Assembly (NCBI GenBank): GCA_000002435.2
Contig: AACB03000010.1
Length of the DNA stretch: 22,518 bases
Origin: Giardia intestinalis
Taxonomy: Eukaryota
Reading direction: 5' to 3' (one strand)
Shown: piece by piece, positions 5,201 through 22,518 of the stretch
Layout of the letters: each line of letters starts with the position of its first letter
How positions within the stretch are numbered: position 1 is the first letter of the stretch
Notes under the pieces: model-generated
Database searches by the model: none
Told to the model about the DNA's origin: nothing
The model's input: only the letters and a program-made list of their open reading frames with translations
Translations under genes and position numbers: made by a program

Positions 5201-5372
5201 ACAGGAGCATACCCCTGGAGCTGGGGAGAAGGCCCCCCTGGCCGCGCCCCCGCCGCGAGACCACGCGGGCACGGGGGCTGGGCGCCCCGGGCGGGCCCTT
5301 CCCCTCCGTCGTGAGGCTGCCTCCCCTCCAATGTCCTTACCGCCTTGCGCGCATATTACGTAGTAAACCGCC
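2284..5372 (+). repeat. Tandem array of four 775-bp monomers. The units are 2284-3054 (771 bp with 4 homopolymer deletions), 3055-3829, 3830-4604 and 4605-5372 (the terminal unit, lacking the last 7 bp 'tctgtct').
   Basis: Exact 775-bp periodicity is seen in identical strings and in the ORF-track repeats at 3020/3795/4570. Each unit starts 'ggttctctgggctcgcgcttccc' and ends 'cgcgcatattacgtagtaaaccgcc' + 'tctgtct'. Confidence 0.95.
5362..5367 (+). promoter_or_regulatory. AGTAAA hexamer (a poly(A)-signal variant; it also fits the AGTRAAY consensus as AGTAAAC), 8 nt upstream of the A16 tract.
   Basis: The sequence reads 'tacgtAGTAAAccgcccct(a)16'. The same hexamer ends every 775-bp monomer. It is a known functional variant of AATAAA, and its position fits a cleavage/polyadenylation site. 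Confidence 0.45.
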
Positions 5373-5375
5373 CCT

Positions 5376-5391
5376 AAAAAAAAAAAAAAAA
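5376..5391 (+). other. Pure A16 tract. It is either the poly(A) tail of the upstream element or an A-rich initiator located 2 nt upstream of the ATG.
   Basis: Homopolymer of 16 A between 'taaaccgcccct' and 'ccATG'. The length is identical at all three unit junctions. Confidence 0.9.
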
Positions 5392-5393
5392 CC

Positions 5394-8300
5394 ATGCGTT
5401 CCGCCCTTTCCGCGCCTTCGGGAACCACGGAGATCGGGGCTTCCTCAGGCCCAGAGCCTCCCAACCACGCTCCAACCGACTCCCACAGGCCCCTACCTAG
5501 GGGCACTCCCGATCCTATGACGCTGGGTGACGGCAACGATGCCTCGACGACCGCCATGGCCCGGCCTTCCTCTTGCGAGCCCCTCTGCGGCTCCCACGGG
5601 CCCCCATCCCCCCAGCCTGGGCCTGGCAACAGCCGTTCCGCCACGGACAACTCTCCCAATGAGTCTTCTCCTGTCCATGGCTTACAGGGCTCCGGGGCCT
5701 CGGTGGCCCGGGACGCCTCTCCTCCCTGCCTGTCGAACGACCTTCTGCCCTGTGGCCAGGAGCCCCTCCCGATTCCCGACGACGGCCTCCCATACGACCT
5801 GGGCCACGACAACTCCCCGTCCATCACGGACGAGCAGGAGGCCCGGGGCGCAGACCTGCCTGCTCCTGGGGGCCGTACGACTGTCTGCGAGCGCTGCGGA
5901 GAGGTGCTGCCTGACTCTGCGGCGATCGATGTCCACATCGGGATGCACCATCCGCCTCCCGGTTCACCTTCTCCGTCGCGCAGCCCTTCTCCGCTGTCGG
6001 GGTCTGCCCCTCCACCTGCAGCCGCCGAGCCCTCTCCCTCGCCAACGCCGGACCCTGTGTTCCCGTATGCATGCAGCATGTGCCGGGCCCGATACAAAAC
6101 GGAGAGGGGGCTGAAGGCCCATATCGCCAGGCTCGGCCACTACCTCCCGCTCGACGCCACAGTCCCCGAGCGCATCGGGGTGCCTAGTGGCAGCCCGTCC
6201 CCTGAGCTGCTTCGCCTCCTCACTGACGTATTCACAGAGATGGCGGGGCGCCTTCCTCCTGTAGAGGCCCTAGCGCGCTTCCTCTCGACGTGCCGCCGCA
6301 TGGAGGGCTCTGGACGGCTCCCCCCGGCGCAGTCGCTTCTCCGGAAGGGGCTGCTCGGCCGGGCATGGCAGGCGCTGTTGAGCGAGACGTCCTCTGCCGC
6401 CAGGGTCCCCGAGCCCCAGGGCAAGGAGCGGGAAGCGATTGTCCATGAGCTCCACCCGCGCCCCATGCCTGTCTCTCTGCCCCCCGTCCATCACGTGCTC
6501 GGCCCGTCGCCCAAGATAACGGCCAAGGCGCTGCTGAAGGAGCTGCAGGCGATGAGGCCTGTCGCGGCCGGACCCTCTGGGCTGGGGAAGCCTCACCTCC
6601 TGCACCTTTGTGGGGCCGCCGGGGCTGCGGAGCTCTTCACCTCTGTCCTGACGACCCTCTTCTCCAGCAGGAACTGGGCCCAGCTCCAGCCCCTGTGCGA
6701 GTTCAGGCTGAAGCTTCTGCCCAAGTCTGGCGGCCGATGGCGCCCTATCGCAGTGCAGGAGACGCTTCTGGTCGCCTTCCACCGCTTGCTCCTGCGTCGG
6801 ACTCCCGCGCTCCGCAAGCTCCCGGCGTGGCAGCTGGCCTTTGAGCACCTCGCCCAGATGAAGGCGATCCGCGCGGCCGAGGAGCTGAAGAGGACACACC
6901 ACCTGCTCACGGTGGATGTGCGGAATGCCTTCAACAGCGTCCCGCATTCCGTCATCCTCTTTGCGCTCCGCCGGGCAGGGGTGGTCCAGCCGACCGTCGC
7001 GTACATTGAGTCGTTCCTCGCGGCTCGGCACTCCTCGGACCTCCCCGCGGTCCCAGCGGGCGTGCCACAGGGGGACCCGCTGTCCATGGCGATGTTCTGC
7101 CAGAGCCTTGTCTGGCCGGTGGAGACGTACCTCGGCCAGTACAAGGTCGTTGCATACGCCGACGACCTCGTCATTGCGTCAGAGGAGGCGATTCCCATAG
7201 ATACCGTGAAGAGTGACGCGCAGTCTGCCCTCTCCCGCATAGGGCTCACGGTCGAGCTCTCGAAGTGCTCCTCGACCCAGGCCGGGGCGATCTCCTTCAT
7301 GGGCACCCGCGTGCTCAAGCACTCCTCCTTCAACCTCGCGCAGACATCGGCCCGCCGGCTCCACGAGCATCTCGCCGTCCTCCGTGCTTCGGGTCTCTCA
7401 CTCCACGACCGCCTCAGGCTCCTGTCTGCCTGCGTCGTCCCTGCAGTTAACTATGGACCCCTTGTTGACGACTACCCGGGCCCGTCCCCCTATGCCGACG
7501 TCGATGCGCAGATAGTGGAGGAGGTCGCGACCCTTCTGGAGATCCCCGAACCCCTTGCGAAGACCCTTGCTCTGACGCCCCGCGCGAAGTACGGCCTCGG
7601 ACTGGTGCTGCCCCATCACTACTACGACGAGATGCACAGGCAGCGCCAGGACATGAAGGCGGGCGTCTTCCGCGAGCTGAGGAAGAAGCGCCTGCAGGAC
7701 ACGGCCGCGCTCCGATCCTTCCTGCCGCTCGCATTGCTGGGCTGCGCACCCCTGGACAACACGCAGGTCCTGTTCATAGGGGACTGCTTGGCGGGGAGGT
7801 ACCAGCGGGGCCGGCCGATGGGCACGTGCTGCCACTGCAAGCAGCCCTTCCTTCCCAGGCACCATCTGGTGTGCAAGGCCATTAACGGGATTCACGTGGC
7901 GCGGCACGACAAGATTCTGGACGCCCTGCTCGCGTGCTCCCGCGGTCGCGCTGGGTCTGTTGTGCGCAATCCCACGATCCCAGTGGATCACCTCCAGCCT
8001 GACCTTGTCATCGGTGGGGGCTTCGGGGACTTGGTGGTCACTGTCCCGTGGAGGCTGGAGCGGTCCTATGCCCTGAAGGCCGCCAAGTATCGCCCCCTCG
8101 TGCTCCAGGGGCGGGCGGCCCACATCCTCCCCGTCGTGGTCGGTGCTGACGGCGTCCTGCACCACCTGTCTGCGGCCGGACTCGCGTTCGCCGGCGTGGA
8201 CCTTGCGCGCTTCATGCAGGAGGCGGCGCAGGTCATCCTCTGGCACTACAGGCTGTCGGCCCTCCTGTACGCTGGGCTGCGAGTGGAGAGGCCGGTGCAC

Positions 8301-8723
8301 CGCCCCGCCCCTGCAGTATCCCTGCCGGAACCGGCTCCCAACGAGGCTCGGGCTACTCCTCCTACTCCCCTCACCCCTGCCATGTGGAGCCCTGGCACGT
8401 CGCCCTCCGTAGAGATCATGGCCGATCTCAGCCAGCATCCTGATGCGGCAGTCCCTCCTCCCTGGGGTCCTGCTGAGGTCTCCTCCTCGATCACCTGGGG
8501 CACCGATCACCCCGCACAGCCGGATGCAAACGAACGCCCAGACCCCTTCATGTGCTCAAGGGCCCCCTCCCCGCCTCCACTGGATGACGACAGCCCCGAC
8601 GATGCAGGAGCACCCGAGCCGGTGCACAAGGCCCTGCCGTCCTTCTTCAAGCGCGTCGGTCCTCCCAAGCCGCATGCCCCTGATGGCTTCTACCCCTTCA
8701 AACGCATCGACACGGGGCGCTAG
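5394..8723 (+). CDS. Non-LTR retrotransposon polyprotein (1109 aa). It has an N-terminal S/P-rich region, 2x C2H2 zinc finger, reverse transcriptase, a CCHC motif and a REL (PD-(D/E)xK) endonuclease. The C-terminal ~150 aa is a P-rich extension.
   Basis: Intact RT motifs are present: LPKSGGRWRPIAV (motifs 1/2), LLTVDVRNAFNSVPH (A), AGVPQGDPLSMAMF (B'), VVAYADDLVIAS (C, YADD at 7155..7166), LTVELSKCS (D). CCHC 'CCHCKQPFLPRHHLVC' is followed by 'RHDKIL'. The endonuclease segment reads 'QPDLVIGGGFGDLVVTVPWRLERSYALKAAKY', matching the R2-type PDLV...D-V-T-V...K..KY pattern. The ATG sits immediately after the A16 tract. Antisense ORFs are low-complexity. Confidence 0.9.
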   Translation: MRSALSAPSGTTEIGASSGPEPPNHAPTDSHRPLPRGTPDPMTLGDGNDASTTAMARPSSCEPLCGSHGPPSPQPGPGNSRSATDNSPNESSPVHGLQGSGASVARDASPPCLSNDLLPCGQEPLPIPDDGLPYDLGHDNSPSITDEQEARGADLPAPGGRTTVCERCGEVLPDSAAIDVHIGMHHPPPGSPSPSRSPSPLSGSAPPPAAAEPSPSPTPDPVFPYACSMCRARYKTERGLKAHIARLGHYLPLDATVPERIGVPSGSPSPELLRLLTDVFTEMAGRLPPVEALARFLSTCRRMEGSGRLPPAQSLLRKGLLGRAWQALLSETSSAARVPEPQGKEREAIVHELHPRPMPVSLPPVHHVLGPSPKITAKALLKELQAMRPVAAGPSGLGKPHLLHLCGAAGAAELFTSVLTTLFSSRNWAQLQPLCEFRLKLLPKSGGRWRPIAVQETLLVAFHRLLLRRTPALRKLPAWQLAFEHLAQMKAIRAAEELKRTHHLLTVDVRNAFNSVPHSVILFALRRAGVVQPTVAYIESFLAARHSSDLPAVPAGVPQGDPLSMAMFCQSLVWPVETYLGQYKVVAYADDLVIASEEAIPIDTVKSDAQSALSRIGLTVELSKCSSTQAGAISFMGTRVLKHSSFNLAQTSARRLHEHLAVLRASGLSLHDRLRLLSACVVPAVNYGPLVDDYPGPSPYADVDAQIVEEVATLLEIPEPLAKTLALTPRAKYGLGLVLPHHYYDEMHRQRQDMKAGVFRELRKKRLQDTAALRSFLPLALLGCAPLDNTQVLFIGDCLAGRYQRGRPMGTCCHCKQPFLPRHHLVCKAINGIHVARHDKILDALLACSRGRAGSVVRNPTIPVDHLQPDLVIGGGFGDLVVTVPWRLERSYALKAAKYRPLVLQGRAAHILPVVVGADGVLHHLSAAGLAFAGVDLARFMQEAAQVILWHYRLSALLYAGLRVERPVHRPAPAVSLPEPAPNEARATPPTPLTPAMWSPGTSPSVEIMADLSQHPDAAVPPPWGPAEVSSSITWGTDHPAQPDANERPDPFMCSRAPSPPPLDDDSPDDAGAPEPVHKALPSFFKRVGPPKPHAPDGFYPFKRIDTGR
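5886..5952 (+). other. C2H2 zinc finger 1 (C-x2-C-x12-H-x3-H): CERCGEVLPDSAAIDVHIGMHH.
   Basis: Spacing of the Cys/His residues in the translated ORF. Confidence 0.75.
6072..6140 (+). other. C2H2 zinc finger 2 (C-x2-C-x12-H-x5-H): CSMCRARYKTERGLKAHIARLGH.
   Basis: Spacing of the Cys/His residues. It is separated from ZF1 by an SP-rich linker (SPSPSRSPSPLSGS...). Confidence 0.7.
6700..7320 (+). other. Reverse-transcriptase core (motifs 1 to E).
   Basis: LPK at 6717-6725, YADD at 7155-7166, FMGTRV at 7296-7313. Confidence 0.85.
7827..8090 (+). other. CCHC zinc motif plus restriction-enzyme-like (PD-(D/E)xK) endonuclease domain.
   Basis: tgc tgc cac tgc at 7827-7838, PD at 7998-8003, D of 'GDLVVTV' at 8028-8030, K..KY at ~8076-8090. 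Confidence 0.8.
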
Positions 8724-10080
8724 TGGTCATGCTTGGGCACCCTGCCCGCTGTCGGCTGCCCCACAGCGCGAACGGACCCCTGGGCCTGCGTGCCGAGCTG
8801 TCTCCCCTGGTACTCCTCGCTCGCACCCGAGGCCTCTTGCCCCTATCATTCGGGTGTGCATCACGTCCAGACACGGTGCGATAGATGCCTAGCCGCGATG
8901 CCATACACACTCGACCAGGCCGGGCCAGGCCGGACGCCCCCCTGGATGGCCAGACACCCGCCCTGCCTACGTTTGGGCACTTCCTCGATGGGACTCGTCA
9001 TCTGCCCACGCCGCAGCCCGGTGTTCGTCTGTCTGTCCTCCCGGGCAGCGGCGGTCCTTGGGTGCTGAGTCTGGCGAGCTGGTGCTGGGGGAAGAGGCTA
9101 GCCCCGTGTGTCATTCGTACCATCGCACCGCGCCGTGCTGATCCCCCCATGGAACTGCCCGCCAGTGGCCGCCTCCGGTCCGGGGCGGCACAGCCCTGGC
9201 TCGGGCCATCCTCTGCTGCAGCGCCCCGGTGCCCCCTGGAGAGGATGGCCGGGTGCTATGTGCTACTGAGCCCTCGGGTGCATCGCTTCCCCACTGCCCC
9301 CCCTCATGTACCCACTCTGGGCGCCCCGGTACAGGGAACCTGGTCACTCTGGCCCTGGCCTCCAGGTGCTTGCCCTCCAATGGGCCATCCCTCATGCGCC
9401 TGTGTTTGCCTGGCCCATTCTCCCCTGCTCCTCTCTACCTCTCCTGCTCGGTCTCCGCTGAGTCGCGGTGACGGCTGTTGACAGTCCCGGCCGGGCCCCC
9501 AGGTTTCGCTCCATACCTGGGCCACATGCCTCCCACCAGCGCTGGCACCACATGGGTTGCTTGTCACAGATGGGACTGGCACGCACAGAAGAATATGGCT
9601 CCACGGCGCTCTGCCGGTCTGTCCTGAGCTGGCGTCATCAGCCTGGACCCGCCCTTAGGGGGCCTCCTCCATCACCCGTGCCTCCCCACACCACCTCCTA
9701 AGCCGTCAGTCTGCTCTCTCAGGCGTGACCTTCTGTCGGCCTCCTGGGCCGTATGGGACCACCGCCCCGCTGCCCCCGCCATCTTGGCCAGACGCCTCCG
9801 GTGAGCCACCATTCTGGAATAGCACGACACGTGTGGATGGGCTAGCTATGGCGCACGGTCCGCACCCTCCCTTCTCACGGACTCCCGGGGACAGTCCGGA
9901 CGCGTCTCCCTTGTCCCCCGAATCGGTGGCCCCGGCCGATCCCCATCGTGCATCCTTATATGGGGCACTGCACACACCTGTCCACGCTGTCCCCTTGGGC
10001 CGGCCACAGCTCACCCCGTGTGTCGATGGGCCAGAATTTGGGCTCCCCAAACCCCTCCACCCCCAAGCTGTTTCCTCGCC
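8724..10080 (+). other. Unique 1357-bp non-coding region following the ORF stop (candidate 3' UTR). It ends '...ccaagctgtttcctcgcc' immediately before the first monomer.
   Basis: Conserved in all units. It has no convincing coding potential. The ORFs in it (e.g. 8885..9481) are P/G/R-rich and out of frame with the RT. Confidence 0.65.
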
Positions 10081-10848
10081 GGTTCTCTGGGCTCGCGCTT
10101 CCCTTTTTAGTGCAACAGCATTATGGTGCCTCGCGTATGTGCGCGGTGCAGTGGGCCGGTCTGTAGGCCTGCCTTTGACTGGAATCCTGGATCCCTGGGT
10201 TTCTGGCCCGACGCGTCGTCTTCTACCCCCCAAACAGGCCTGCACTCTTCTTGGTCCACGGGCTATTTGTCTCTTTGTTTCCGCGGCCCAGGGCCTGCTG
10301 GTTGCGCCGGGGCGACGCTCATGGTGGATTTTATTTTTTCCAAAATCCAGAATTTGGGCCTGAAGACCGCCCCCGCAGGGCCTGGAGGATGCGGGGAATC
10401 GGTCCACCCACACCATGCGCTCGAGCAAAGGCCAAGCACCCACGCCATCACGTCTCATCCAGGACTCCTGCGCCGCCACGGAGGAGGATCGGCACCTTCG
10501 CCATCGATCCTCCAGGATGCCCCCCTACCACTCCCCCTCACATGGCACGCCTCCCTCGGGCCTGTATGTCTGCATGCCGCTATGCCCTAACACCGCAGGC
10601 CGCCCTCTCCGCGGATCCACTAACACACAGCCTGCAGCGCCTGGCCCCCCTGGCCGTGACCCGCGCGCCCCCGCGCACAGGAGCATACCCCTGGAGCTGG
10701 GGAGAAGGCCCCCCTGGCCGCGCCCCCGCCGCGAGACCACGCGGGCACGGGGGCTGGGCGCCCCGGGCGGGCCCTTCCCCTCCGTCGTGAGGCTGCCTCC
10801 CCTCCAATGTCCTTACCGCCTTGCGCGCATATTACGTAGTAAACCGCC
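10081..10848 (+). repeat. Single (terminal-type, 768-bp) copy of the 775-bp monomer.
   Basis: Identical to the terminal monomers 4605-5372 and 17882-18649. Confidence 0.95.
10838..10843 (+). promoter_or_regulatory. AGTAAA poly(A)-signal-like hexamer, 8 nt before the A16 tract.
   Basis: Same context as 5362-5367. Confidence 0.45.
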
Positions 10849-10851
10849 CCT

Positions 10852-10867
10852 AAAAAAAAAAAAAAAA
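10852..10867 (+). other. A16 tract at the unit junction.
   Basis: 16 A's, followed by 'cc' and then ATG at 10870. Confidence 0.9.
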
Positions 10868-10869
10868 CC

Positions 10870-13800
10870 ATGCGTTCCGCCCTTTCCGCGCCTTCGGGAA
10901 CCACGGAGATCGGGGCTTCCTCAGGCCCAGAGCCTCCCAACCACGCTCCAACCGACTCCCACAGGCCCCTACCTAGGGGCACTCCCGATCCTATGACGCT
11001 GGGTGACGGCAACGATGCCTCGACGACCGCCATGGCCCGGCCTTCCTCTTGCGAGCCCCTCTGCGGCTCCCACGGGCCCCCATCCCCCCAGCCTGGGCCT
11101 GGCAACAGCCGTTCCGCCACGGACAACTCTCCCAATGAGTCTTCTCCTGTCCATGGCTTACAGGGCTCCGGGGCCTCGGTGGCCCGGGACGCCTCTCCTC
11201 CCTGCCTGTCGAACGACCTTCTGCCCTGTGGCCAGGAGCCCCTCCCGATTCCCGACGACGGCCTCCCATACGACCTGGGCCACGACAACTCCCCGTCCAT
11301 CACGGACGAGCAGGAGGCCCGGGGCGCAGACCTGCCTGCTCCTGGGGGCCGTACGACTGTCTGCGAGCGCTGCGGAGAGGTGCTGCCTGACTCTGCGGCG
11401 ATCGATGTCCACATCGGGATGCACCATCCGCCTCCCGGTTCACCTTCTCCGTCGCGCAGCCCTTCTCCGCTGTCGGGGTCTGCCCCTCCACCTGCAGCCG
11501 CCGAGCCCTCTCCCTCGCCAACGCCGGACCCTGTGTTCCCGTATGCATGCAGCATGTGCCGGGCCCGATACAAAACGGAGAGGGGGCTGAAGGCCCATAT
11601 CGCCAGGCTCGGCCACTACCTCCCGCTCGACGCCACAGTCCCCGAGCGCATCGGGGTGCCTAGTGGCAGCCCGTCCCCTGAGCTGCTTCGCCTCCTCACT
11701 GACGTATTCACAGAGATGGCGGGGCGCCTTCCTCCTGTAGAGGCCCTAGCGCGCTTCCTCTCGACGTGCCGCCGCATGGAGGGCTCTGGACGGCTCCCCC
11801 CGGCGCAGTCGCTTCTCCGGAAGGGGCTGCTCGGCCGGGCATGGCAGGCGCTGTTGAGCGAGACGTCCTCTGCCGCCAGGGTCCCCGAGCCCCAGGGCAA
11901 GGAGCGGGAAGCGATTGTCCATGAGCTCCACCCGCGCCCCATGCCTGTCTCTCTGCCCCCCGTCCATCACGTGCTCGGCCCGTCGCCCAAGATAACGGCC
12001 AAGGCGCTGCTGAAGGAGCTGCAGGCGATGAGGCCTGTCGCGGCCGGACCCTCTGGGCTGGGGAAGCCTCACCTCCTGCACCTTTGTGGGGCCGCCGGGG
12101 CTGCGGAGCTCTTCACCTCTGTCCTGACGACCCTCTTCTCCAGCAGGAACTGGGCCCAGCTCCAGCCCCTGTGCGAGTTCAGGCTGAAGCTTCTGCCCAA
12201 GTCTGGCGGCCGATGGCGCCCTATCGCAGTGCAGGAGACGCTTCTGGTCGCCTTCCACCGCTTGCTCCTGCGTCGGACTCCCGCGCTCCGCAAGCTCCCG
12301 GCGTGGCAGCTGGCCTTTGAGCACCTCGCCCAGATGAAGGCGATCCGCGCGGCCGAGGAGCTGAAGAGGACACACCACCTGCTCACGGTGGATGTGCGGA
12401 ATGCCTTCAACAGCGTCCCGCATTCCGTCATCCTCTTTGCGCTCCGCCGGGCAGGGGTGGTCCAGCCGACCGTCGCGTACATTGAGTCGTTCCTCGCGGC
12501 TCGGCACTCCTCGGACCTCCCCGCGGTCCCAGCGGGCGTGCCACAGGGGGACCCGCTGTCCATGGCGATGTTCTGCCAGAGCCTTGTCTGGCCGGTGGAG
12601 ACGTACCTCGGCCAGTACAAGGTCGTTGCATACGCCGACGACCTCGTCATTGCGTCAGAGGAGGCGATTCCCATAGATACCGTGAAGAGTGACGCGCAGT
12701 CTGCCCTCTCCCGCATAGGGCTCACGGTCGAGCTCTCGAAGTGCTCCTCGACCCAGGCCGGGGCGATCTCCTTCATGGGCACCCGCGTGCTCAAGCACTC
12801 CTCCTTCAACCTCGCGCAGACATCGGCCCGCCGGCTCCACGAGCATCTCGCCGTCCTCCGTGCTTCGGGTCTCTCACTCCACGACCGCCTCAGGCTCCTG
12901 TCTGCCTGCGTCGTCCCTGCAGTTAACTATGGACCCCTTGTTGACGACTACCCGGGCCCGTCCCCCTATGCCGACGTCGATGCGCAGATAGTGGAGGAGG
13001 TCGCGACCCTTCTGGAGATCCCCGAACCCCTTGCGAAGACCCTTGCTCTGACGCCCCGCGCGAAGTACGGCCTCGGACTGGTGCTGCCCCATCACTACTA
13101 CGACGAGATGCACAGGCAGCGCCAGGACATGAAGGCGGGCGTCTTCCGCGAGCTGAGGAAGAAGCGCCTGCAGGACACGGCCGCGCTCCGATCCTTCCTG
13201 CCGCTCGCATTGCTGGGCTGCGCACCCCTGGACAACACGCAGGTCCTGTTCATAGGGGACTGCTTGGCGGGGAGGTACCAGCGGGGCCGGCCGATGGGCA
13301 CGTGCTGCCACTGCAAGCAGCCCTTCCTTCCCAGGCACCATCTGGTGTGCAAGGCCATTAACGGGATTCACGTGGCGCGGCACGACAAGATTCTGGACGC
13401 CCTGCTCGCGTGCTCCCGCGGTCGCGCTGGGTCTGTTGTGCGCAATCCCACGATCCCAGTGGATCACCTCCAGCCTGACCTTGTCATCGGTGGGGGCTTC
13501 GGGGACTTGGTGGTCACTGTCCCGTGGAGGCTGGAGCGGTCCTATGCCCTGAAGGCCGCCAAGTATCGCCCCCTCGTGCTCCAGGGGCGGGCGGCCCACA
13601 TCCTCCCCGTCGTGGTCGGTGCTGACGGCGTCCTGCACCACCTGTCTGCGGCCGGACTCGCGTTCGCCGGCGTGGACCTTGCGCGCTTCATGCAGGAGGC
13701 GGCGCAGGTCATCCTCTGGCACTACAGGCTGTCGGCCCTCCTGTACGCTGGGCTGCGAGTGGAGAGGCCGGTGCACCGCCCCGCCCCTGCAGTATCCCTG

Positions 13801-14199
13801 CCGGAACCGGCTCCCAACGAGGCTCGGGCTACTCCTCCTACTCCCCTCACCCCTGCCATGTGGAGCCCTGGCACGTCGCCCTCCGTAGAGATCATGGCCG
13901 ATCTCAGCCAGCATCCTGATGCGGCAGTCCCTCCTCCCTGGGGTCCTGCTGAGGTCTCCTCCTCGATCACCTGGGGCACCGATCACCCCGCACAGCCGGA
14001 TGCAAACGAACGCCCAGACCCCTTCATGTGCTCAAGGGCCCCCTCCCCGCCTCCACTGGATGACGACAGCCCCGACGATGCAGGAGCACCCGAGCCGGTG
14101 CACAAGGCCCTGCCGTCCTTCTTCAAGCGCGTCGGTCCTCCCAAGCCGCATGCCCCTGATGGCTTCTACCCCTTCAAACGCATCGACACGGGGCGCTAG
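10870..14199 (+). CDS. Non-LTR retrotransposon RT/REL-endonuclease polyprotein, second full copy (1109 aa, identical translation).
   Basis: The ORF-track protein is identical to 5394..8723. All overlapping alternative-frame ORFs are also identical, implying nucleotide identity. Confidence 0.9.
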   Translation: MRSALSAPSGTTEIGASSGPEPPNHAPTDSHRPLPRGTPDPMTLGDGNDASTTAMARPSSCEPLCGSHGPPSPQPGPGNSRSATDNSPNESSPVHGLQGSGASVARDASPPCLSNDLLPCGQEPLPIPDDGLPYDLGHDNSPSITDEQEARGADLPAPGGRTTVCERCGEVLPDSAAIDVHIGMHHPPPGSPSPSRSPSPLSGSAPPPAAAEPSPSPTPDPVFPYACSMCRARYKTERGLKAHIARLGHYLPLDATVPERIGVPSGSPSPELLRLLTDVFTEMAGRLPPVEALARFLSTCRRMEGSGRLPPAQSLLRKGLLGRAWQALLSETSSAARVPEPQGKEREAIVHELHPRPMPVSLPPVHHVLGPSPKITAKALLKELQAMRPVAAGPSGLGKPHLLHLCGAAGAAELFTSVLTTLFSSRNWAQLQPLCEFRLKLLPKSGGRWRPIAVQETLLVAFHRLLLRRTPALRKLPAWQLAFEHLAQMKAIRAAEELKRTHHLLTVDVRNAFNSVPHSVILFALRRAGVVQPTVAYIESFLAARHSSDLPAVPAGVPQGDPLSMAMFCQSLVWPVETYLGQYKVVAYADDLVIASEEAIPIDTVKSDAQSALSRIGLTVELSKCSSTQAGAISFMGTRVLKHSSFNLAQTSARRLHEHLAVLRASGLSLHDRLRLLSACVVPAVNYGPLVDDYPGPSPYADVDAQIVEEVATLLEIPEPLAKTLALTPRAKYGLGLVLPHHYYDEMHRQRQDMKAGVFRELRKKRLQDTAALRSFLPLALLGCAPLDNTQVLFIGDCLAGRYQRGRPMGTCCHCKQPFLPRHHLVCKAINGIHVARHDKILDALLACSRGRAGSVVRNPTIPVDHLQPDLVIGGGFGDLVVTVPWRLERSYALKAAKYRPLVLQGRAAHILPVVVGADGVLHHLSAAGLAFAGVDLARFMQEAAQVILWHYRLSALLYAGLRVERPVHRPAPAVSLPEPAPNEARATPPTPLTPAMWSPGTSPSVEIMADLSQHPDAAVPPPWGPAEVSSSITWGTDHPAQPDANERPDPFMCSRAPSPPPLDDDSPDDAGAPEPVHKALPSFFKRVGPPKPHAPDGFYPFKRIDTGR

Positions 14200-15556
14200 T
14201 GGTCATGCTTGGGCACCCTGCCCGCTGTCGGCTGCCCCACAGCGCGAACGGACCCCTGGGCCTGCGTGCCGAGCTGTCTCCCCTGGTACTCCTCGCTCGC
14301 ACCCGAGGCCTCTTGCCCCTATCATTCGGGTGTGCATCACGTCCAGACACGGTGCGATAGATGCCTAGCCGCGATGCCATACACACTCGACCAGGCCGGG
14401 CCAGGCCGGACGCCCCCCTGGATGGCCAGACACCCGCCCTGCCTACGTTTGGGCACTTCCTCGATGGGACTCGTCATCTGCCCACGCCGCAGCCCGGTGT
14501 TCGTCTGTCTGTCCTCCCGGGCAGCGGCGGTCCTTGGGTGCTGAGTCTGGCGAGCTGGTGCTGGGGGAAGAGGCTAGCCCCGTGTGTCATTCGTACCATC
14601 GCACCGCGCCGTGCTGATCCCCCCATGGAACTGCCCGCCAGTGGCCGCCTCCGGTCCGGGGCGGCACAGCCCTGGCTCGGGCCATCCTCTGCTGCAGCGC
14701 CCCGGTGCCCCCTGGAGAGGATGGCCGGGTGCTATGTGCTACTGAGCCCTCGGGTGCATCGCTTCCCCACTGCCCCCCCTCATGTACCCACTCTGGGCGC
14801 CCCGGTACAGGGAACCTGGTCACTCTGGCCCTGGCCTCCAGGTGCTTGCCCTCCAATGGGCCATCCCTCATGCGCCTGTGTTTGCCTGGCCCATTCTCCC
14901 CTGCTCCTCTCTACCTCTCCTGCTCGGTCTCCGCTGAGTCGCGGTGACGGCTGTTGACAGTCCCGGCCGGGCCCCCAGGTTTCGCTCCATACCTGGGCCA
15001 CATGCCTCCCACCAGCGCTGGCACCACATGGGTTGCTTGTCACAGATGGGACTGGCACGCACAGAAGAATATGGCTCCACGGCGCTCTGCCGGTCTGTCC
15101 TGAGCTGGCGTCATCAGCCTGGACCCGCCCTTAGGGGGCCTCCTCCATCACCCGTGCCTCCCCACACCACCTCCTAAGCCGTCAGTCTGCTCTCTCAGGC
15201 GTGACCTTCTGTCGGCCTCCTGGGCCGTATGGGACCACCGCCCCGCTGCCCCCGCCATCTTGGCCAGACGCCTCCGGTGAGCCACCATTCTGGAATAGCA
15301 CGACACGTGTGGATGGGCTAGCTATGGCGCACGGTCCGCACCCTCCCTTCTCACGGACTCCCGGGGACAGTCCGGACGCGTCTCCCTTGTCCCCCGAATC
15401 GGTGGCCCCGGCCGATCCCCATCGTGCATCCTTATATGGGGCACTGCACACACCTGTCCACGCTGTCCCCTTGGGCCGGCCACAGCTCACCCCGTGTGTC
15501 GATGGGCCAGAATTTGGGCTCCCCAAACCCCTCCACCCCCAAGCTGTTTCCTCGCC
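14200..15556 (+). other. Unique ~1.36-kb post-ORF region (candidate 3' UTR), copy 2.
   Basis: Identical to 8724..10080. Confidence 0.65.
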
Positions 15557-18500
15557 GGTTCTCTGGGCTCGCGCTTCCCTTTTTAGTGCAACAGCATTAT
15601 GGTGCCTCGCGTATGTGCGCGGTGCAGTGGGCCGGTCTGTAGGCCTGCCTTTGACTGGAATCCTGGATCCCTGGGTTTCTGGCCCGACGCGTCGTCTTCT
15701 ACCCCCCAAACAGGCCTGCACTCTTCTTGGTCCACGGGCTATTTGTCTCTTTGTTTCCGCGGCCCAGGGCCTGCTGGTTGCGCCGGGGCGACGCTCATGG
15801 TGGATTTTATTTTTTCCAAAATCCAGAATTTGGGCCTGAAGACCGCCCCCGCAGGGCCTGGAGGATGCGGGGAATCGGTCCACCCACACCATGCGCTCGA
15901 GCAAAGGCCAAGCACCCACGCCATCACGTCTCATCCAGGACTCCTGCGCCGCCACGGAGGAGGATCGGCACCTTCGCCATCGATCCTCCAGGATGCCCCC
16001 CTACCACTCCCCCTCACATGGCACGCCTCCCTCGGGCCTGTATGTCTGCATGCCGCTATGCCCTAACACCGCAGGCCGCCCTCTCCGCGGATCCACTAAC
16101 ACACAGCCTGCAGCGCCTGGCCCCCCTGGCCGTGACCCGCGCGCCCCCGCGCACAGGAGCATACCCCTGGAGCTGGGGAGAAGGCCCCCCTGGCCGCGCC
16201 CCCGCCGCGAGACCACGCGGGCACGGGGGCTGGGCGCCCCGGGCGGGCCCTTCCCCTCCGTCGTGAGGCTGCCTCCCCTCCAATGTCCTTACCGCCTTGC
16301 GCGCATATTACGTAGTAAACCGCCTCTGTCTGGTTCTCTGGGCTCGCGCTTCCCTTTTTAGTGCAACAGCATTATGGTGCCTCGCGTATGTGCGCGGTGC
16401 AGTGGGCCGGTCTGTAGGCCTGCCTTTGACTGGAATCCTGGATCCCTGGGTTTCTGGCCCGACGCGTCGTCTTCTACCCCCCAAACAGGCCTGCACTCTT
16501 CTTGGTCCACGGGCTATTTGTCTCTTTGTTTCCGCGGCCCAGGGCCTGCTGGTTGCGCCGGGGCGACGCTCATGGTGGATTTTATTTTTTCCAAAATCCA
16601 GAATTTGGGCCTGAAGACCGCCCCCGCAGGGCCTGGAGGATGCGGGGAATCGGTCCACCCACACCATGCGCTCGAGCAAAGGCCAAGCACCCACGCCATC
16701 ACGTCTCATCCAGGACTCCTGCGCCGCCACGGAGGAGGATCGGCACCTTCGCCATCGATCCTCCAGGATGCCCCCCTACCACTCCCCCTCACATGGCACG
16801 CCTCCCTCGGGCCTGTATGTCTGCATGCCGCTATGCCCTAACACCGCAGGCCGCCCTCTCCGCGGATCCACTAACACACAGCCTGCAGCGCCTGGCCCCC
16901 CTGGCCGTGACCCGCGCGCCCCCGCGCACAGGAGCATACCCCTGGAGCTGGGGAGAAGGCCCCCCTGGCCGCGCCCCCGCCGCGAGACCACGCGGGCACG
17001 GGGGCTGGGCGCCCCGGGCGGGCCCTTCCCCTCCGTCGTGAGGCTGCCTCCCCTCCAATGTCCTTACCGCCTTGCGCGCATATTACGTAGTAAACCGCCT
17101 CTGTCTGGTTCTCTGGGCTCGCGCTTCCCTTTTTAGTGCAACAGCATTATGGTGCCTCGCGTATGTGCGCGGTGCAGTGGGCCGGTCTGTAGGCCTGCCT
17201 TTGACTGGAATCCTGGATCCCTGGGTTTCTGGCCCGACGCGTCGTCTTCTACCCCCCAAACAGGCCTGCACTCTTCTTGGTCCACGGGCTATTTGTCTCT
17301 TTGTTTCCGCGGCCCAGGGCCTGCTGGTTGCGCCGGGGCGACGCTCATGGTGGATTTTATTTTTTCCAAAATCCAGAATTTGGGCCTGAAGACCGCCCCC
17401 GCAGGGCCTGGAGGATGCGGGGAATCGGTCCACCCACACCATGCGCTCGAGCAAAGGCCAAGCACCCACGCCATCACGTCTCATCCAGGACTCCTGCGCC
17501 GCCACGGAGGAGGATCGGCACCTTCGCCATCGATCCTCCAGGATGCCCCCCTACCACTCCCCCTCACATGGCACGCCTCCCTCGGGCCTGTATGTCTGCA
17601 TGCCGCTATGCCCTAACACCGCAGGCCGCCCTCTCCGCGGATCCACTAACACACAGCCTGCAGCGCCTGGCCCCCCTGGCCGTGACCCGCGCGCCCCCGC
17701 GCACAGGAGCATACCCCTGGAGCTGGGGAGAAGGCCCCCCTGGCCGCGCCCCCGCCGCGAGACCACGCGGGCACGGGGGCTGGGCGCCCCGGGCGGGCCC
17801 TTCCCCTCCGTCGTGAGGCTGCCTCCCCTCCAATGTCCTTACCGCCTTGCGCGCATATTACGTAGTAAACCGCCTCTGTCTGGTTCTCTGGGCTCGCGCT
17901 TCCCTTTTTAGTGCAACAGCATTATGGTGCCTCGCGTATGTGCGCGGTGCAGTGGGCCGGTCTGTAGGCCTGCCTTTGACTGGAATCCTGGATCCCTGGG
18001 TTTCTGGCCCGACGCGTCGTCTTCTACCCCCCAAACAGGCCTGCACTCTTCTTGGTCCACGGGCTATTTGTCTCTTTGTTTCCGCGGCCCAGGGCCTGCT
18101 GGTTGCGCCGGGGCGACGCTCATGGTGGATTTTATTTTTTCCAAAATCCAGAATTTGGGCCTGAAGACCGCCCCCGCAGGGCCTGGAGGATGCGGGGAAT
18201 CGGTCCACCCACACCATGCGCTCGAGCAAAGGCCAAGCACCCACGCCATCACGTCTCATCCAGGACTCCTGCGCCGCCACGGAGGAGGATCGGCACCTTC
18301 GCCATCGATCCTCCAGGATGCCCCCCTACCACTCCCCCTCACATGGCACGCCTCCCTCGGGCCTGTATGTCTGCATGCCGCTATGCCCTAACACCGCAGG
18401 CCGCCCTCTCCGCGGATCCACTAACACACAGCCTGCAGCGCCTGGCCCCCCTGGCCGTGACCCGCGCGCCCCCGCGCACAGGAGCATACCCCTGGAGCTG

Positions 18501-18649
18501 GGGAGAAGGCCCCCCTGGCCGCGCCCCCGCCGCGAGACCACGCGGGCACGGGGGCTGGGCGCCCCGGGCGGGCCCTTCCCCTCCGTCGTGAGGCTGCCTC
18601 CCCTCCAATGTCCTTACCGCCTTGCGCGCATATTACGTAGTAAACCGCC
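15557..18649 (+). repeat. Tandem array of four 775-bp monomers: 15557-16331, 16332-17106, 17107-17881 and 17882-18649 (terminal, 768 bp).
   Basis: Exact periodicity. ORF-track repeats are seen at 16297/17072/17847. Confidence 0.95.
18639..18644 (+). promoter_or_regulatory. AGTAAA poly(A)-signal-like hexamer, 8 nt before the A16 tract.
   Basis: Same context as the other junctions. Confidence 0.45.
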
Positions 18650-18652
18650 CCT

Positions 18653-18668
18653 AAAAAAAAAAAAAAAA
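18653..18668 (+). other. A16 tract at the unit junction.
   Basis: 16 A's, followed by 'cc' and then ATG at 18671. Confidence 0.9.
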
Positions 18669-18670
18669 CC

Positions 18671-21600
18671 ATGCGTTCCGCCCTTTCCGCGCCTTCGGGA
18701 ACCACGGAGATCGGGGCTTCCTCAGGCCCAGAGCCTCCCAACCACGCTCCAACCGACTCCCACAGGCCCCTACCTAGGGGCACTCCCGATCCTATGACGC
18801 TGGGTGACGGCAACGATGCCTCGACGACCGCCATGGCCCGGCCTTCCTCTTGCGAGCCCCTCTGCGGCTCCCACGGGCCCCCATCCCCCCAGCCTGGGCC
18901 TGGCAACAGCCGTTCCGCCACGGACAACTCTCCCAATGAGTCTTCTCCTGTCCATGGCTTACAGGGCTCCGGGGCCTCGGTGGCCCGGGACGCCTCTCCT
19001 CCCTGCCTGTCGAACGACCTTCTGCCCTGTGGCCAGGAGCCCCTCCCGATTCCCGACGACGGCCTCCCATACGACCTGGGCCACGACAACTCCCCGTCCA
19101 TCACGGACGAGCAGGAGGCCCGGGGCGCAGACCTGCCTGCTCCTGGGGGCCGTACGACTGTCTGCGAGCGCTGCGGAGAGGTGCTGCCTGACTCTGCGGC
19201 GATCGATGTCCACATCGGGATGCACCATCCGCCTCCCGGTTCACCTTCTCCGTCGCGCAGCCCTTCTCCGCTGTCGGGGTCTGCCCCTCCACCTGCAGCC
19301 GCCGAGCCCTCTCCCTCGCCAACGCCGGACCCTGTGTTCCCGTATGCATGCAGCATGTGCCGGGCCCGATACAAAACGGAGAGGGGGCTGAAGGCCCATA
19401 TCGCCAGGCTCGGCCACTACCTCCCGCTCGACGCCACAGTCCCCGAGCGCATCGGGGTGCCTAGTGGCAGCCCGTCCCCTGAGCTGCTTCGCCTCCTCAC
19501 TGACGTATTCACAGAGATGGCGGGGCGCCTTCCTCCTGTAGAGGCCCTAGCGCGCTTCCTCTCGACGTGCCGCCGCATGGAGGGCTCTGGACGGCTCCCC
19601 CCGGCGCAGTCGCTTCTCCGGAAGGGGCTGCTCGGCCGGGCATGGCAGGCGCTGTTGAGCGAGACGTCCTCTGCCGCCAGGGTCCCCGAGCCCCAGGGCA
19701 AGGAGCGGGAAGCGATTGTCCATGAGCTCCACCCGCGCCCCATGCCTGTCTCTCTGCCCCCCGTCCATCACGTGCTCGGCCCGTCGCCCAAGATAACGGC
19801 CAAGGCGCTGCTGAAGGAGCTGCAGGCGATGAGGCCTGTCGCGGCCGGACCCTCTGGGCTGGGGAAGCCTCACCTCCTGCACCTTTGTGGGGCCGCCGGG
19901 GCTGCGGAGCTCTTCACCTCTGTCCTGACGACCCTCTTCTCCAGCAGGAACTGGGCCCAGCTCCAGCCCCTGTGCGAGTTCAGGCTGAAGCTTCTGCCCA
20001 AGTCTGGCGGCCGATGGCGCCCTATCGCAGTGCAGGAGACGCTTCTGGTCGCCTTCCACCGCTTGCTCCTGCGTCGGACTCCCGCGCTCCGCAAGCTCCC
20101 GGCGTGGCAGCTGGCCTTTGAGCACCTCGCCCAGATGAAGGCGATCCGCGCGGCCGAGGAGCTGAAGAGGACACACCACCTGCTCACGGTGGATGTGCGG
20201 AATGCCTTCAACAGCGTCCCGCATTCCGTCATCCTCTTTGCGCTCCGCCGGGCAGGGGTGGTCCAGCCGACCGTCGCGTACATTGAGTCGTTCCTCGCGG
20301 CTCGGCACTCCTCGGACCTCCCCGCGGTCCCAGCGGGCGTGCCACAGGGGGACCCGCTGTCCATGGCGATGTTCTGCCAGAGCCTTGTCTGGCCGGTGGA
20401 GACGTACCTCGGCCAGTACAAGGTCGTTGCATACGCCGACGACCTCGTCATTGCGTCAGAGGAGGCGATTCCCATAGATACCGTGAAGAGTGACGCGCAG
20501 TCTGCCCTCTCCCGCATAGGGCTCACGGTCGAGCTCTCGAAGTGCTCCTCGACCCAGGCCGGGGCGATCTCCTTCATGGGCACCCGCGTGCTCAAGCACT
20601 CCTCCTTCAACCTCGCGCAGACATCGGCCCGCCGGCTCCACGAGCATCTCGCCGTCCTCCGTGCTTCGGGTCTCTCACTCCACGACCGCCTCAGGCTCCT
20701 GTCTGCCTGCGTCGTCCCTGCAGTTAACTATGGACCCCTTGTTGACGACTACCCGGGCCCGTCCCCCTATGCCGACGTCGATGCGCAGATAGTGGAGGAG
20801 GTCGCGACCCTTCTGGAGATCCCCGAACCCCTTGCGAAGACCCTTGCTCTGACGCCCCGCGCGAAGTACGGCCTCGGACTGGTGCTGCCCCATCACTACT
20901 ACGACGAGATGCACAGGCAGCGCCAGGACATGAAGGCGGGCGTCTTCCGCGAGCTGAGGAAGAAGCGCCTGCAGGACACGGCCGCGCTCCGATCCTTCCT
21001 GCCGCTCGCATTGCTGGGCTGCGCACCCCTGGACAACACGCAGGTCCTGTTCATAGGGGACTGCTTGGCGGGGAGGTACCAGCGGGGCCGGCCGATGGGC
21101 ACGTGCTGCCACTGCAAGCAGCCCTTCCTTCCCAGGCACCATCTGGTGTGCAAGGCCATTAACGGGATTCACGTGGCGCGGCACGACAAGATTCTGGACG
21201 CCCTGCTCGCGTGCTCCCGCGGTCGCGCTGGGTCTGTTGTGCGCAATCCCACGATCCCAGTGGATCACCTCCAGCCTGACCTTGTCATCGGTGGGGGCTT
21301 CGGGGACTTGGTGGTCACTGTCCCGTGGAGGCTGGAGCGGTCCTATGCCCTGAAGGCCGCCAAGTATCGCCCCCTCGTGCTCCAGGGGCGGGCGGCCCAC
21401 ATCCTCCCCGTCGTGGTCGGTGCTGACGGCGTCCTGCACCACCTGTCTGCGGCCGGACTCGCGTTCGCCGGCGTGGACCTTGCGCGCTTCATGCAGGAGG
21501 CGGCGCAGGTCATCCTCTGGCACTACAGGCTGTCGGCCCTCCTGTACGCTGGGCTGCGAGTGGAGAGGCCGGTGCACCGCCCCGCCCCTGCAGTATCCCT

Positions 21601-22000
21601 GCCGGAACCGGCTCCCAACGAGGCTCGGGCTACTCCTCCTACTCCCCTCACCCCTGCCATGTGGAGCCCTGGCACGTCGCCCTCCGTAGAGATCATGGCC
21701 GATCTCAGCCAGCATCCTGATGCGGCAGTCCCTCCTCCCTGGGGTCCTGCTGAGGTCTCCTCCTCGATCACCTGGGGCACCGATCACCCCGCACAGCCGG
21801 ATGCAAACGAACGCCCAGACCCCTTCATGTGCTCAAGGGCCCCCTCCCCGCCTCCACTGGATGACGACAGCCCCGACGATGCAGGAGCACCCGAGCCGGT
21901 GCACAAGGCCCTGCCGTCCTTCTTCAAGCGCGTCGGTCCTCCCAAGCCGCATGCCCCTGATGGCTTCTACCCCTTCAAACGCATCGACACGGGGCGCTAG
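18671..22000 (+). CDS. Non-LTR retrotransposon RT/REL-endonuclease polyprotein, third full copy (1109 aa, identical translation).
   Basis: The ORF-track protein is identical to the other two copies. Confidence 0.9.
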   Translation: MRSALSAPSGTTEIGASSGPEPPNHAPTDSHRPLPRGTPDPMTLGDGNDASTTAMARPSSCEPLCGSHGPPSPQPGPGNSRSATDNSPNESSPVHGLQGSGASVARDASPPCLSNDLLPCGQEPLPIPDDGLPYDLGHDNSPSITDEQEARGADLPAPGGRTTVCERCGEVLPDSAAIDVHIGMHHPPPGSPSPSRSPSPLSGSAPPPAAAEPSPSPTPDPVFPYACSMCRARYKTERGLKAHIARLGHYLPLDATVPERIGVPSGSPSPELLRLLTDVFTEMAGRLPPVEALARFLSTCRRMEGSGRLPPAQSLLRKGLLGRAWQALLSETSSAARVPEPQGKEREAIVHELHPRPMPVSLPPVHHVLGPSPKITAKALLKELQAMRPVAAGPSGLGKPHLLHLCGAAGAAELFTSVLTTLFSSRNWAQLQPLCEFRLKLLPKSGGRWRPIAVQETLLVAFHRLLLRRTPALRKLPAWQLAFEHLAQMKAIRAAEELKRTHHLLTVDVRNAFNSVPHSVILFALRRAGVVQPTVAYIESFLAARHSSDLPAVPAGVPQGDPLSMAMFCQSLVWPVETYLGQYKVVAYADDLVIASEEAIPIDTVKSDAQSALSRIGLTVELSKCSSTQAGAISFMGTRVLKHSSFNLAQTSARRLHEHLAVLRASGLSLHDRLRLLSACVVPAVNYGPLVDDYPGPSPYADVDAQIVEEVATLLEIPEPLAKTLALTPRAKYGLGLVLPHHYYDEMHRQRQDMKAGVFRELRKKRLQDTAALRSFLPLALLGCAPLDNTQVLFIGDCLAGRYQRGRPMGTCCHCKQPFLPRHHLVCKAINGIHVARHDKILDALLACSRGRAGSVVRNPTIPVDHLQPDLVIGGGFGDLVVTVPWRLERSYALKAAKYRPLVLQGRAAHILPVVVGADGVLHHLSAAGLAFAGVDLARFMQEAAQVILWHYRLSALLYAGLRVERPVHRPAPAVSLPEPAPNEARATPPTPLTPAMWSPGTSPSVEIMADLSQHPDAAVPPPWGPAEVSSSITWGTDHPAQPDANERPDPFMCSRAPSPPPLDDDSPDDAGAPEPVHKALPSFFKRVGPPKPHAPDGFYPFKRIDTGR

Positions 22001-22518
22001 TGGTCATGCTTGGGCACCCTGCCCGCTGTCGCTGCCCCACAGCGCGAACGGACCCTGGGCCTGCGTGCCGAGCTGTCTCCCCTGGTACTCCTCGCTCGCA
22101 CCCGAGGCCTCTTGCCCCTATCATTCGGGTGTGCATCACGTCCAGACACGGTGCGATAGATGCCTAGCCGCGATGCCATACACACTCGACCAGGCCGGCC
22201 AGGCCGGACGCCCCCCTGGATGGCCAGACACCCGCCCTGCCTACGTTTGGGCACTTTCCTCGATGGACTCGTCATCTGCCCACGCCGCAGCCCGGTGTTC
22301 GTCTGTCTGTCCTCCCGGGCAGCGGCGGTCCTTGGGTGCTGAGTCTGGCGAGCTGGTGCTGGGGAAGAGGCTAGCCCCGTGTGTCATTCGTACCATCGCA
22401 CCGCGCCGTGCTGATCCCCCATGGAACTGCCCGCCAGTGGCCGCCTCCGGTCCGGGGCGGCAACAGCCCTGGCTCGGGCCATCCCTCTGCTGCAGCGCCC
22501 CGGTGCCCCCTGGAGAGG
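22001..22518 (+). other. Post-ORF unique region, truncated by the window end. It carries ~8 single-base indels relative to 8724..9241.
   Basis: Aligns to the start of the 1357-bp region. Example differences: gtcgctgcc vs gtcggctgcc, gaccctggg vs gacccctggg, ggcggcaacagcc vs ggcggcacagcc. Confidence 0.7.

Follow-up and report, generated by a model that had tools for sequence, protein, structure and literature searches.

The window analyzed here, a stretch of 22,518 nucleotides of Giardia intestinalis WB DNA (contig AACB03000010.1), is a head-to-tail array of GilM (Genie 1), an R2-like retrotransposon that lacks long terminal repeats (non-LTR) and has a single open reading frame (ORF). A unit runs in the order CC-ATG, 1109-amino-acid (aa) ORF, 1357-nt unique 3′ untranslated region (UTR), n copies of a 775-bp monomer, and poly(A). 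The explanation that we consider the best overall, and reasonably probable, is that the monomer is a 3′-terminal module of GilM and that units with one and four copies of it result from a change at the DNA level. The 4-1-4 feature is real, yet ordinary for GilM: the element, its tandem arrays and its ~0.77-kb repeat have been in the literature since 2001-2002. New are the exact 4-1-4 arrangement in this contig and the comparison of junctions across isolates. The latter provides a sequence-based argument for the repeat being the element's own 3′ end, and it bears on the choice of insertion sites at Giardia chromosome ends by elements with a restriction-like endonuclease (RLE).

Identity and arrangement of the array

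The ORF product is identical over 1109/1109 residues to the G. duodenalis 'putative reverse transcriptase/endonuclease' entries KAE8301202-204 and KAE8302557, and the three consecutive accessions fit a contig with three ORF copies. Its 90% cluster includes AAL47180.1, 'putative reverse transcriptase/endonuclease [Giardia intestinalis]'. The short unit measures 5476 bp, with 5474-bp contigs or closed 5479-bp cycles among the Logan short-read contigs and a GilM unit of 5,474 bp in Xu et al. 2020 (PMC7000408). According to two reviews (PMC5537684, PMC10999387), Arkhipova and Morrison 2001 described GilM and GilT as telomere-associated head-to-tail arrays with unusually long 3′ UTRs. The window shares with published GilM an identical protein, the unit length (5,476 versus 5,474 bp), the head-to-tail arrays, the unusually long 3′ UTR (PMC5537684) and the association with a ~0.77-kb tandem repeat; it is the same element, with nothing essential different. 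Genie 1 of Burke et al. 2002 and GilM are one element. Burke et al. reportedly gave the length of the associated repeat as 771 bp, and the literature offers two readings of this repeat. The (TAGGG)n repeat is absent from the window, which consists only of array sequence, and the subtelomeric location is taken from the literature (PMC7000408, PMC10999387).

The ATGs of the three complete ORFs, at 5394, 10870 and 18671, are 5476 and 7801 bp apart, and these distances differ by 2325 bp, i.e., 3 x 775. Base-by-base scans revealed a perfect 775-bp period over 15557-18649 (4 x 775 minus 7 bp), perfect identity of 4605-10848 with 10081-16324 at an offset of 5476 bp, and perfect identity of 10081-14230 with 17882-22031 at an offset of 7801 bp. 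Position 10081 is the first base of the single monomer, and 18649 is the last periodic base of the four-monomer array. A repeat search of the window found nine monomer copies grouped 4-1-4, with four monomers also in the interval upstream of the first ATG (2284-5375); Tandem Repeats Finder, whose maximum period is apparently 500 bp, reported no repeat in the window. Chance is no issue for this match of spacings, as the identical bases number in the thousands.

An earlier note made from the sequence alone had given the same distances and the same difference of exactly three monomers, and its arithmetic and coordinates are correct. The periodicity scan also bore out its statement that the units differ by whole monomers, one versus four. 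Its further statement that everything else is identical holds within 2949-22031, where self-identity is perfect, but not for 1-2949 and 22031-22518. Compared with clean copies, these two regions contain 19 single-base indels and no substitutions, nearly all in short homopolymer runs. This is a signature of unpolished long-read contig ends and suggests that the window is a whole long-read contig. The indels produce an apparent spacing of 7795 bp and a first monomer (2284-3054) that reads 771 bp because of four 1-bp deletions, and such errors frameshift the first, partial ORF copy.

The monomer as the 3′ end of GilM

Within a unit, the unique 3′ UTR passes into the first monomer at ...TTTCCTCGCC/GGTTCTCTGG... 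(the slash marks the boundary), and one monomer passes into the next at ...ACGTAGTAAACCGCC TCTGTCT/GGTTCTCTGG...; the internal junctions of the long unit read ...AAACCGCC TCTGTCT/GGTTCTC.... The last monomer is joined to the next unit as ...ACGTAGTAAACCGCC CCT A16 CC ATG, and, given one T-to-C difference, it runs 3 bases further (CCT), up to A16. The leader between A16 and the ATG is only 2 nt long, CC (5376-5393, 10852-10869 and 18653-18670, A16 included).

Scanning both strands of the 22.5-kb window for the Giardia poly(A) signal consensus AGT[A/G]AA[T/C] (AGTRAAY; PMC1872034) yielded nine sites, all on the + strand and one per monomer end. By chance, 2.6 sites would be expected, and no shuffle out of 100 gave as many as nine. 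Downstream of the reverse transcriptase (RT) ORF, the end of monomer 1 supplies the first poly(A) signal, and A16 starts 7 nt past the last AGTAAAC of the unit. The unique part of the 3′ UTR (8724-10080) has neither a poly(A) signal nor similarity to the monomer. Polyadenylation at monomer ends, to which the earlier note had appealed, is thus a real feature, in that every monomer ends in AGTAAAC, the window's only poly(A) signal.

Other roles for the monomer were considered and rejected. AGTAAAC and A16 separate the last monomer from the ATG, which argues against a 5′-UTR promoter array of the L1 type or a leader of the downstream ORF. Neither Rfam, at gathering thresholds and at E<=5, nor ARAGORN gave a match to a host RNA gene (spliced leader, 5S, small nuclear RNA [snRNA] or tRNA). 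We also considered an older, degenerate monomer inside the unique 3′ UTR and found no significant similarity. A 13-mer, CCAGAATTTGGGC, occurs at 10032-10046, just 5′ of the first monomer, and at 10347-10360, inside the monomer, in otherwise dissimilar surroundings.

For contigs fetched for homologous proteins and for an ORF of the window (designated by L numbers), the sequence from the poly(A) signal to the next ATG was compared (Table 1). Across isolates and families, the A-run starts after CCT, TCTG, TCTGT or other bases, and its length is 6, 7, 9, 10, 11, 12, 13, 15 or 16. A start that slides along TCTGTCT (TCT, TCTG, TCTGT) together with a varying length identifies the A-run as a poly(A) tail that was copied from RNA and not as an insert's 5′ end. 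Two junctions of the P15 array on L001 differ from each other (A15-CCA-ATG versus A9-CC-ATG), which suggests separate retrotransposition events, though 454 homopolymer error may contribute.

In the P15 copy of GilM, body and monomer are colinear and similarly diverged, with 88% and 86% identity. Among families, whose ORFs are 52-63% identical at the protein level, non-coding similarity is confined to the last 130-220 nt before the tail. The terminal ~170 nt of the monomer are common to seven element copies of several divergent families and contain invariant alignment blocks, whereas the monomer start is not conserved in other families. This terminal module includes two hairpins with compensatory changes, e.g., CCGCG/CGCGG versus CCACA/TGTGG and CCTC/GAGG versus CCTT/AAGG. 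As an alignment of seven copies is a small sample, these changes lend modest support to a 3′ module.

One GilM unit of P15 lacks an A-run; it ends at AGTAAATCCCCTC and is fused to an internal point of an L018-family 3′ UTR (L014:5600-6535); the downstream part is 99.9% identical over 912 bp to L018:5103-6013 and 11300-12209. This junction reads as a GilM 3′ end beside a 5′-truncated element of another family rather than an array of 775-bp repeats, which is what joining onto an eroded chromosome end, or inserting into a different element, should produce. From these comparisons we favor the monomer being a 3′-terminal UTR module of GilM itself over a repeat of the host that serves as a target.

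Some of the fetched sequences were less informative. At L004:4380-4500, a GilM monomer (identical to about monomer position 675) switches to another family's 3′ end, A11 and an ORF; this is a chimeric short-read path through the common 3′ module and was left out as linkage evidence. A stretch of the 3′ module at least one k-mer long is common to both families, so several contigs break at monomer positions 649-678. A contig of GCA_000498735.1 (L002) contains degenerate, internally located copies that are uninformative on the monomer question, and one metagenome scan did not find the monomer end. The third unit of the P15 array (L001:11760-11837) lacks poly(A) and continues as ...AGTAAATTCCCCTC TGTCT ACTCTGCCCCCTCGCCTGGGG..., sharing TCTGTCT with the WB internal junction. 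This 45-nt continuation had no match in the other fetched sequences, and a native downstream flank is a candidate for it.

A model attributed to Burke et al. 2002 treats the 775-bp unit as a chromosomal tandem repeat. A 4.7-kb element (10849-15556) would insert site-specifically between AAACCGCC and GGTTCTC, deleting TCTGTCT, and the 1-versus-4 pattern would reflect which repeats are occupied. Spacings that are exact multiples of the repeat, the constant 7-bp loss and the 4-nt CGCC microhomology at both junctions all suit such insertion, and elements of the RLE type usually insert site-specifically into tandem repeats (PMC4640811). However, the model would place A16 at the 5′ end of the element, exactly 7 nt past a poly(A) signal belonging to the host, whereas the A-run varies between isolates in start and length as a poly(A) tail does. 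The same layout of signal, A(n), CC and ATG is found in three other families that lack a tandem repeat, and it is only upstream of the supposed insertion site that the monomer is conserved across families. In P15, the sequence beyond the poly(A) site of the last L001 unit does not recur after other units, and the L014 body with its one monomer adjoins another family's 3′ UTR instead of a repeat array. Nor does the monomer contain an RNA gene detectable with Rfam or ARAGORN. The repeat thus behaves as part of the element, not as a multicopy host gene or repeat hit site-specifically, and we regard the chromosomal-target model as very unlikely. Another candidate for a target is a resident copy's 5′ end, for which the element may be specific.

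Origin of the one- and four-monomer units

All three units end in CGCC-C-CT followed by A16, and all six internal junctions read CGCC-T-CTGTCT. The internal TCTGTCT reaches at least 2 nt past every observed tailing site, so the monomer-monomer junctions do not stem from polyadenylated cDNA ends and were inherited as DNA or as read-through RNA. If an RNA received its poly(A) after an internal monomer, it should have the T, which disfavors polyadenylation as the source of this pair of units. Of the two routes that the earlier note had offered, unequal exchange therefore fits better than polyadenylation after different monomers, because the one- and four-monomer units have the same terminal C variant and the same A16. 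Judged from these junctions, the difference most likely arose at the DNA level after the common ancestor of the units, by unequal crossing-over, slippage or single-strand annealing between identical monomers.

Under an origin at the RNA level, each kind of unit would go back to a retrotransposition of its own, from a transcript that either was polyadenylated after monomer 1 or continued by read-through as far as monomer 4. Such an origin would draw on the full poly(A) signal in every monomer, the first of which 3′ of the ORF ends monomer 1, on one-monomer units prevailing in other isolates (as contigs or cycles of 5474 to 5479 bp), and on the heterogeneity of junctions between isolates and within the P15 array, which shows that retrotransposition builds arrays. 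Yet the one-monomer unit has the terminal C, not the internal T, its A16 equals that of the four-monomer units although independent events elsewhere differ in site and A length, and the rest of the units is identical over 4.7 kb. We consider this origin unlikely for the pair in the window; polyadenylation after an internal monomer may still be the reason that one-monomer units are usual in other isolates. It is similarly improbable, in our estimate, that the pattern is an assembly artefact, with a true monomer number that is uniform or otherwise mixed and a 4-1-4 order and identity created by collapse or polishing of near-identical copies. The caveat of mis-assembly raised in the earlier note is nonetheless warranted. 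In Xu et al. 2020 (PMC7000408), read depth over the array is 1,800x versus 200x genome-wide, an excess of about 9-fold that implies a collapsed assembly of the array, and PacBio homopolymer errors are reported to have required Illumina polishing, of which the 100% identity may partly be an effect. The homopolymer-type indels at the window ends agree with such errors. Two short-read contigs (L008 and L009) have A16 as their exact start, which indicates that different sequences precede the A-run in a single sample. Against an artefact, the intervals concerned are only 2.1 and 4.5 kb long, within reach of single PacBio reads, and the monomer-monomer junction is found independently in short reads, with L013 ending in TCTGTCT and L011 bounded by both branch points. 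Clone-based work of 2002 is said to have already described tandem copies of the repeat between elements.

Several points count against the reading that we prefer, in which the monomer is the element's 3′ end and its number changed at the DNA level. The argument for the DNA level hinges on the assembly being right at the junctions. With the array collapsed and polished, the identity, the 4-1-4 order and even the terminal CCT variant could be consensus effects, and the CCT-A16 junction of the window was in none of the short-read contigs compared. As all monomers are identical, a breakpoint of exchange cannot be mapped, and unequal crossing-over, slippage, template jumping of the RT between monomers and gene conversion are indistinguishable. 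That the A-run is used as a promoter and that the RT binds the 3′ module, both discussed below, we infer only. Burke et al. 2002, as cited in PMC1950533, took the repeat for a chromosomal target. Copy number, monomer number and 100% identity in the collapsed WB reference array are accordingly not to be taken at face value.

The number of monomers is probably polymorphic, as the earlier note had supposed; the indications come from short-read contigs (Logan, apparently k = 31, with a 30-nt end overlap in L015). Body, one monomer, A16 and body follow each other unbroken in L006 and L007, and L015 closes into a 5479-bp cycle with one monomer. Both ends of L011, on the other hand, coincide with the branch points that coexisting monomer-monomer and terminal junctions would create, exactly 30 nt ahead of its A13 run and 30 nt inside the monomer, and L013 terminates in the full internal TCTGTCT. 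The contigs thus appear to indicate multi-monomer units in some isolates, such units being undetectable in others. The k-mers CCGCCTCTGTCTGGTTCTC (monomer-monomer junction) and TTCCTCGCCGGTTCTC (UTR-monomer junction), together with those of the terminal junctions, would make it possible to estimate the number of monomers in a unit with any short-read set, the mean being 1 + (monomer-monomer count/UTR-monomer count).

Proposed working and relation to other elements

By analogy with R2, the conserved and structured monomer end may be the RNA segment that the RT recognizes for target-primed reverse transcription. Giardia 5′ UTRs can be as short as 1 nt, most are below 20 nt, and initiation has an AT-rich consensus (PMC3792122), which makes an A-run 2 nt before the ATG a plausible initiator of the downstream unit. 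The poly(A) tail of the upstream unit would then probably double as the initiator of the next copy. The A(n)/CC-ATG junctions, which are precise but differ even within one P15 array, suggest that retrotransposition would place new copies immediately before a resident one. Nuclease specificity and end-to-end template jumping by an R2-like RT are candidate routes to such placement. Bibillo and Eickbush reportedly described end-to-end template jumping of the R2 RT. The array, which would be subtelomeric, might be homogenized by recombination, its identical monomers exchanging at the DNA level.

The only AT-rich island in the monomer, ATTTTATTTTTT, lies ~524 nt before the poly(A) and is kept in the P15 and L016 copies of GilM. 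Comparable AT-rich islands precede the tail by 523 nt in family L001 and by 549 nt in family L018, and none is found in L003. The ATTTTATTTTTT island may be a candidate internal or antisense initiator, of which each added monomer would supply one more. Tentatively, the monomer might even be a complete, duplicable 3′ cassette, made up of an RT-recognition structure, the AT-rich island, the only poly(A) signal and an A-run that doubles as the initiator of the next copy. If so, the array would be self-promoting, and read-through, antisense or small-RNA output, or transposition competence, would be adjusted through the number of monomers. New copies would be set precisely before the CC-ATG of a resident copy, by self-targeting of the endonuclease or R2-like template jumping, and the disagreement of 2001/2002 would be settled for a 3′ UTR over a host target repeat.

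Among the closest known systems are the GilT/Genie 1A-like sister families (P15 L001 and L018, the tail of L004 and metagenome contig L003). They have the same ORF architecture, the same head-to-tail junction of AGTAAAY, 6-9 nt, A(n), CC(A/C) and ATG, and a homologous 3′-terminal module of about 130-220 nt. Their ORFs are only 52-63% identical in protein to that of GilM, and their ~2.3-2.7-kb 3′ UTRs lack an internal tandem repeat; to judge from these sequences, GilM alone seems to have a duplicated terminal module.

R2, CRE/SLACS, NeSL and Utopia, the RLE non-LTR elements, have a single ORF with C2H2 fingers, RT, and CCHC and PD..D nuclease, as GilM does, and an RT phylogeny places GilM in or near the CRE clade (PMC10088271). 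Those elements target ribosomal DNA, spliced-leader or snRNA genes, whereas GilM is without an identified host gene target, and its poly(A)-tailed units are inserted beside each other or beside members of other families.

Drosophila HeT-A and TART likewise form head-to-tail arrays at chromosome ends, with very long 3′ UTRs and 5′-truncated neighbors (compare L014). They differ in belonging to the Jockey clade, in having an apurinic/apyrimidinic endonuclease or none, and in having a gag ORF; the 5′ ends of GilM are precise (CC-ATG), and Giardia retains telomerase repeats. Danilevskaya et al. reportedly found in 1997 that a HeT-A unit is driven by the 3′ end of the unit upstream of it. By analogy, the A-run before the ATG of GilM suggests the same logic of promoting in tandem. 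The 5′-UTR monomers of mouse L1 are tandem too, vary in number among near-identical copies and change by unequal exchange. However, they are about 200 bp long and act as promoters in the 5′ UTR of the same element, between its 5′ end and first ORF, whereas GilM monomers are 775 bp long, lie in the 3′ UTR of the upstream unit and each have a poly(A) signal.

Table 1 Features of the window and signal-to-ATG junctions in the compared contigs
Feature	Position	Strand	Sequence or remark
Partial unit: C-terminal part of RT ORF and unique 3′ UTR	1..2283	+	1-bp homopolymer indels
Four 775-bp monomers	2284..5375	+	last ending CGCCCCT
A16 poly(A) tail of upstream unit	5376..5391	+	then CC, then ATG
GilM ORF copy 1	5394..8723	+	1109 aa
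Unique part of 3′ UTR	8724..10080	+	1357 bp
Single monomer of short (5476-bp) unit	10081..10851	+	768 periodic bases and CCT
AT-rich island	10328..10339	+	ATTTTATTTTTT
Conserved 3′-terminal module of monomer	10690..10851	+	
AGTAAAC poly(A) signal	10838..10844	+	consensus of PMC1872034
Further AGTAAAC sites, one per monomer end	3037, 3812, 4587, 5362, 16314, 17089, 17864, 18639	+	
A16 poly(A) tail	10852..10867	+	also AT-rich tract directly 5′ of next start codon
GilM ORF copy 2	10870..14199	+	1109 aa
C2H2 zinc fingers, ORF copy 2	about 11359-11616	+	N-terminal
RT domain, ORF copy 2	12196-12786	+	
CCHC and PD..D restriction-like endonuclease region, ORF copy 2	about 13297-13536	+	
Unique part of 3′ UTR, unit 2	14200..15556	+	
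Four monomers of long (7801-bp) unit	15557-16331, 16332-17106, 17107-17881, 17882-18652	+	
A16 poly(A) tail	18653..18668	+	
GilM ORF copy 3	18671..22000	+	1109 aa
Start of next unique 3′ UTR	22001..22518	+	1-bp indels from 22031 on
Junction, WB (window)			CGCCCCT-A16-CC
Junction, L006, L007			CGCCTCTGT-A16-CC
Junction, L011			CGCCTCTG-A13-CC
Junction, L005			CCTCTCTC-A6-CC
Junction, L016			TCCCCTC-A13-CC
Junction, P15 GilM (L014)			CCCCTCTGT-A12-CCC
Junction, L015			ACACCTC-A11-CCC
Junction, P15 family L001, first	L001:168-188		TCCCCCTC-A15-CCA
Junction, P15 family L001, second	L001:5984-5997		TCCCCTC-A9-CC
Junction, P15 family L018			ACTCTGC-A12-CC
Junction, L004 tail			TACTCTGGG-A11-CC
Junction, metagenome L003			AACCCT-A10-CC

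The single ORF encodes a protein with the R2-type domain order: zinc finger(s) at the N terminus, the RT in the middle, and a CCHC motif and PD-(D/E)xK nuclease at the C terminus. Pfam detected RVT_1 (E = 3.8e-21) and zf-C2H2_4 (E = 1.7e-4, below the Pfam cutoff). The best match among solved structures was the R2 protein 9nl2 (E = 6e-9 across the RT), and the CCHC...RHD...PD...D motifs at the C terminus align with the R2 nuclease region, a match that is not significant for that stretch alone. Relative to the L016 and P15 copies, substitutions in the RT ORF show a strong bias toward third codon positions, which indicates purifying selection on this ORF. A 198-aa ORF in the unique 3′ UTR (14361-14957) was rejected as spurious, having frameshifts or stops in L016, L014 and L015 and no codon-position bias; it is called as a gene in many short-read assemblies.

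The base composition of the window is 67% G+C, and the coding strand is C-rich throughout, with a GC skew of about -0.1 to -0.2. This fits a report that GilM carries G-quadruplex motifs on the strand co-oriented with the telomeric G-strand (PMC10088271).

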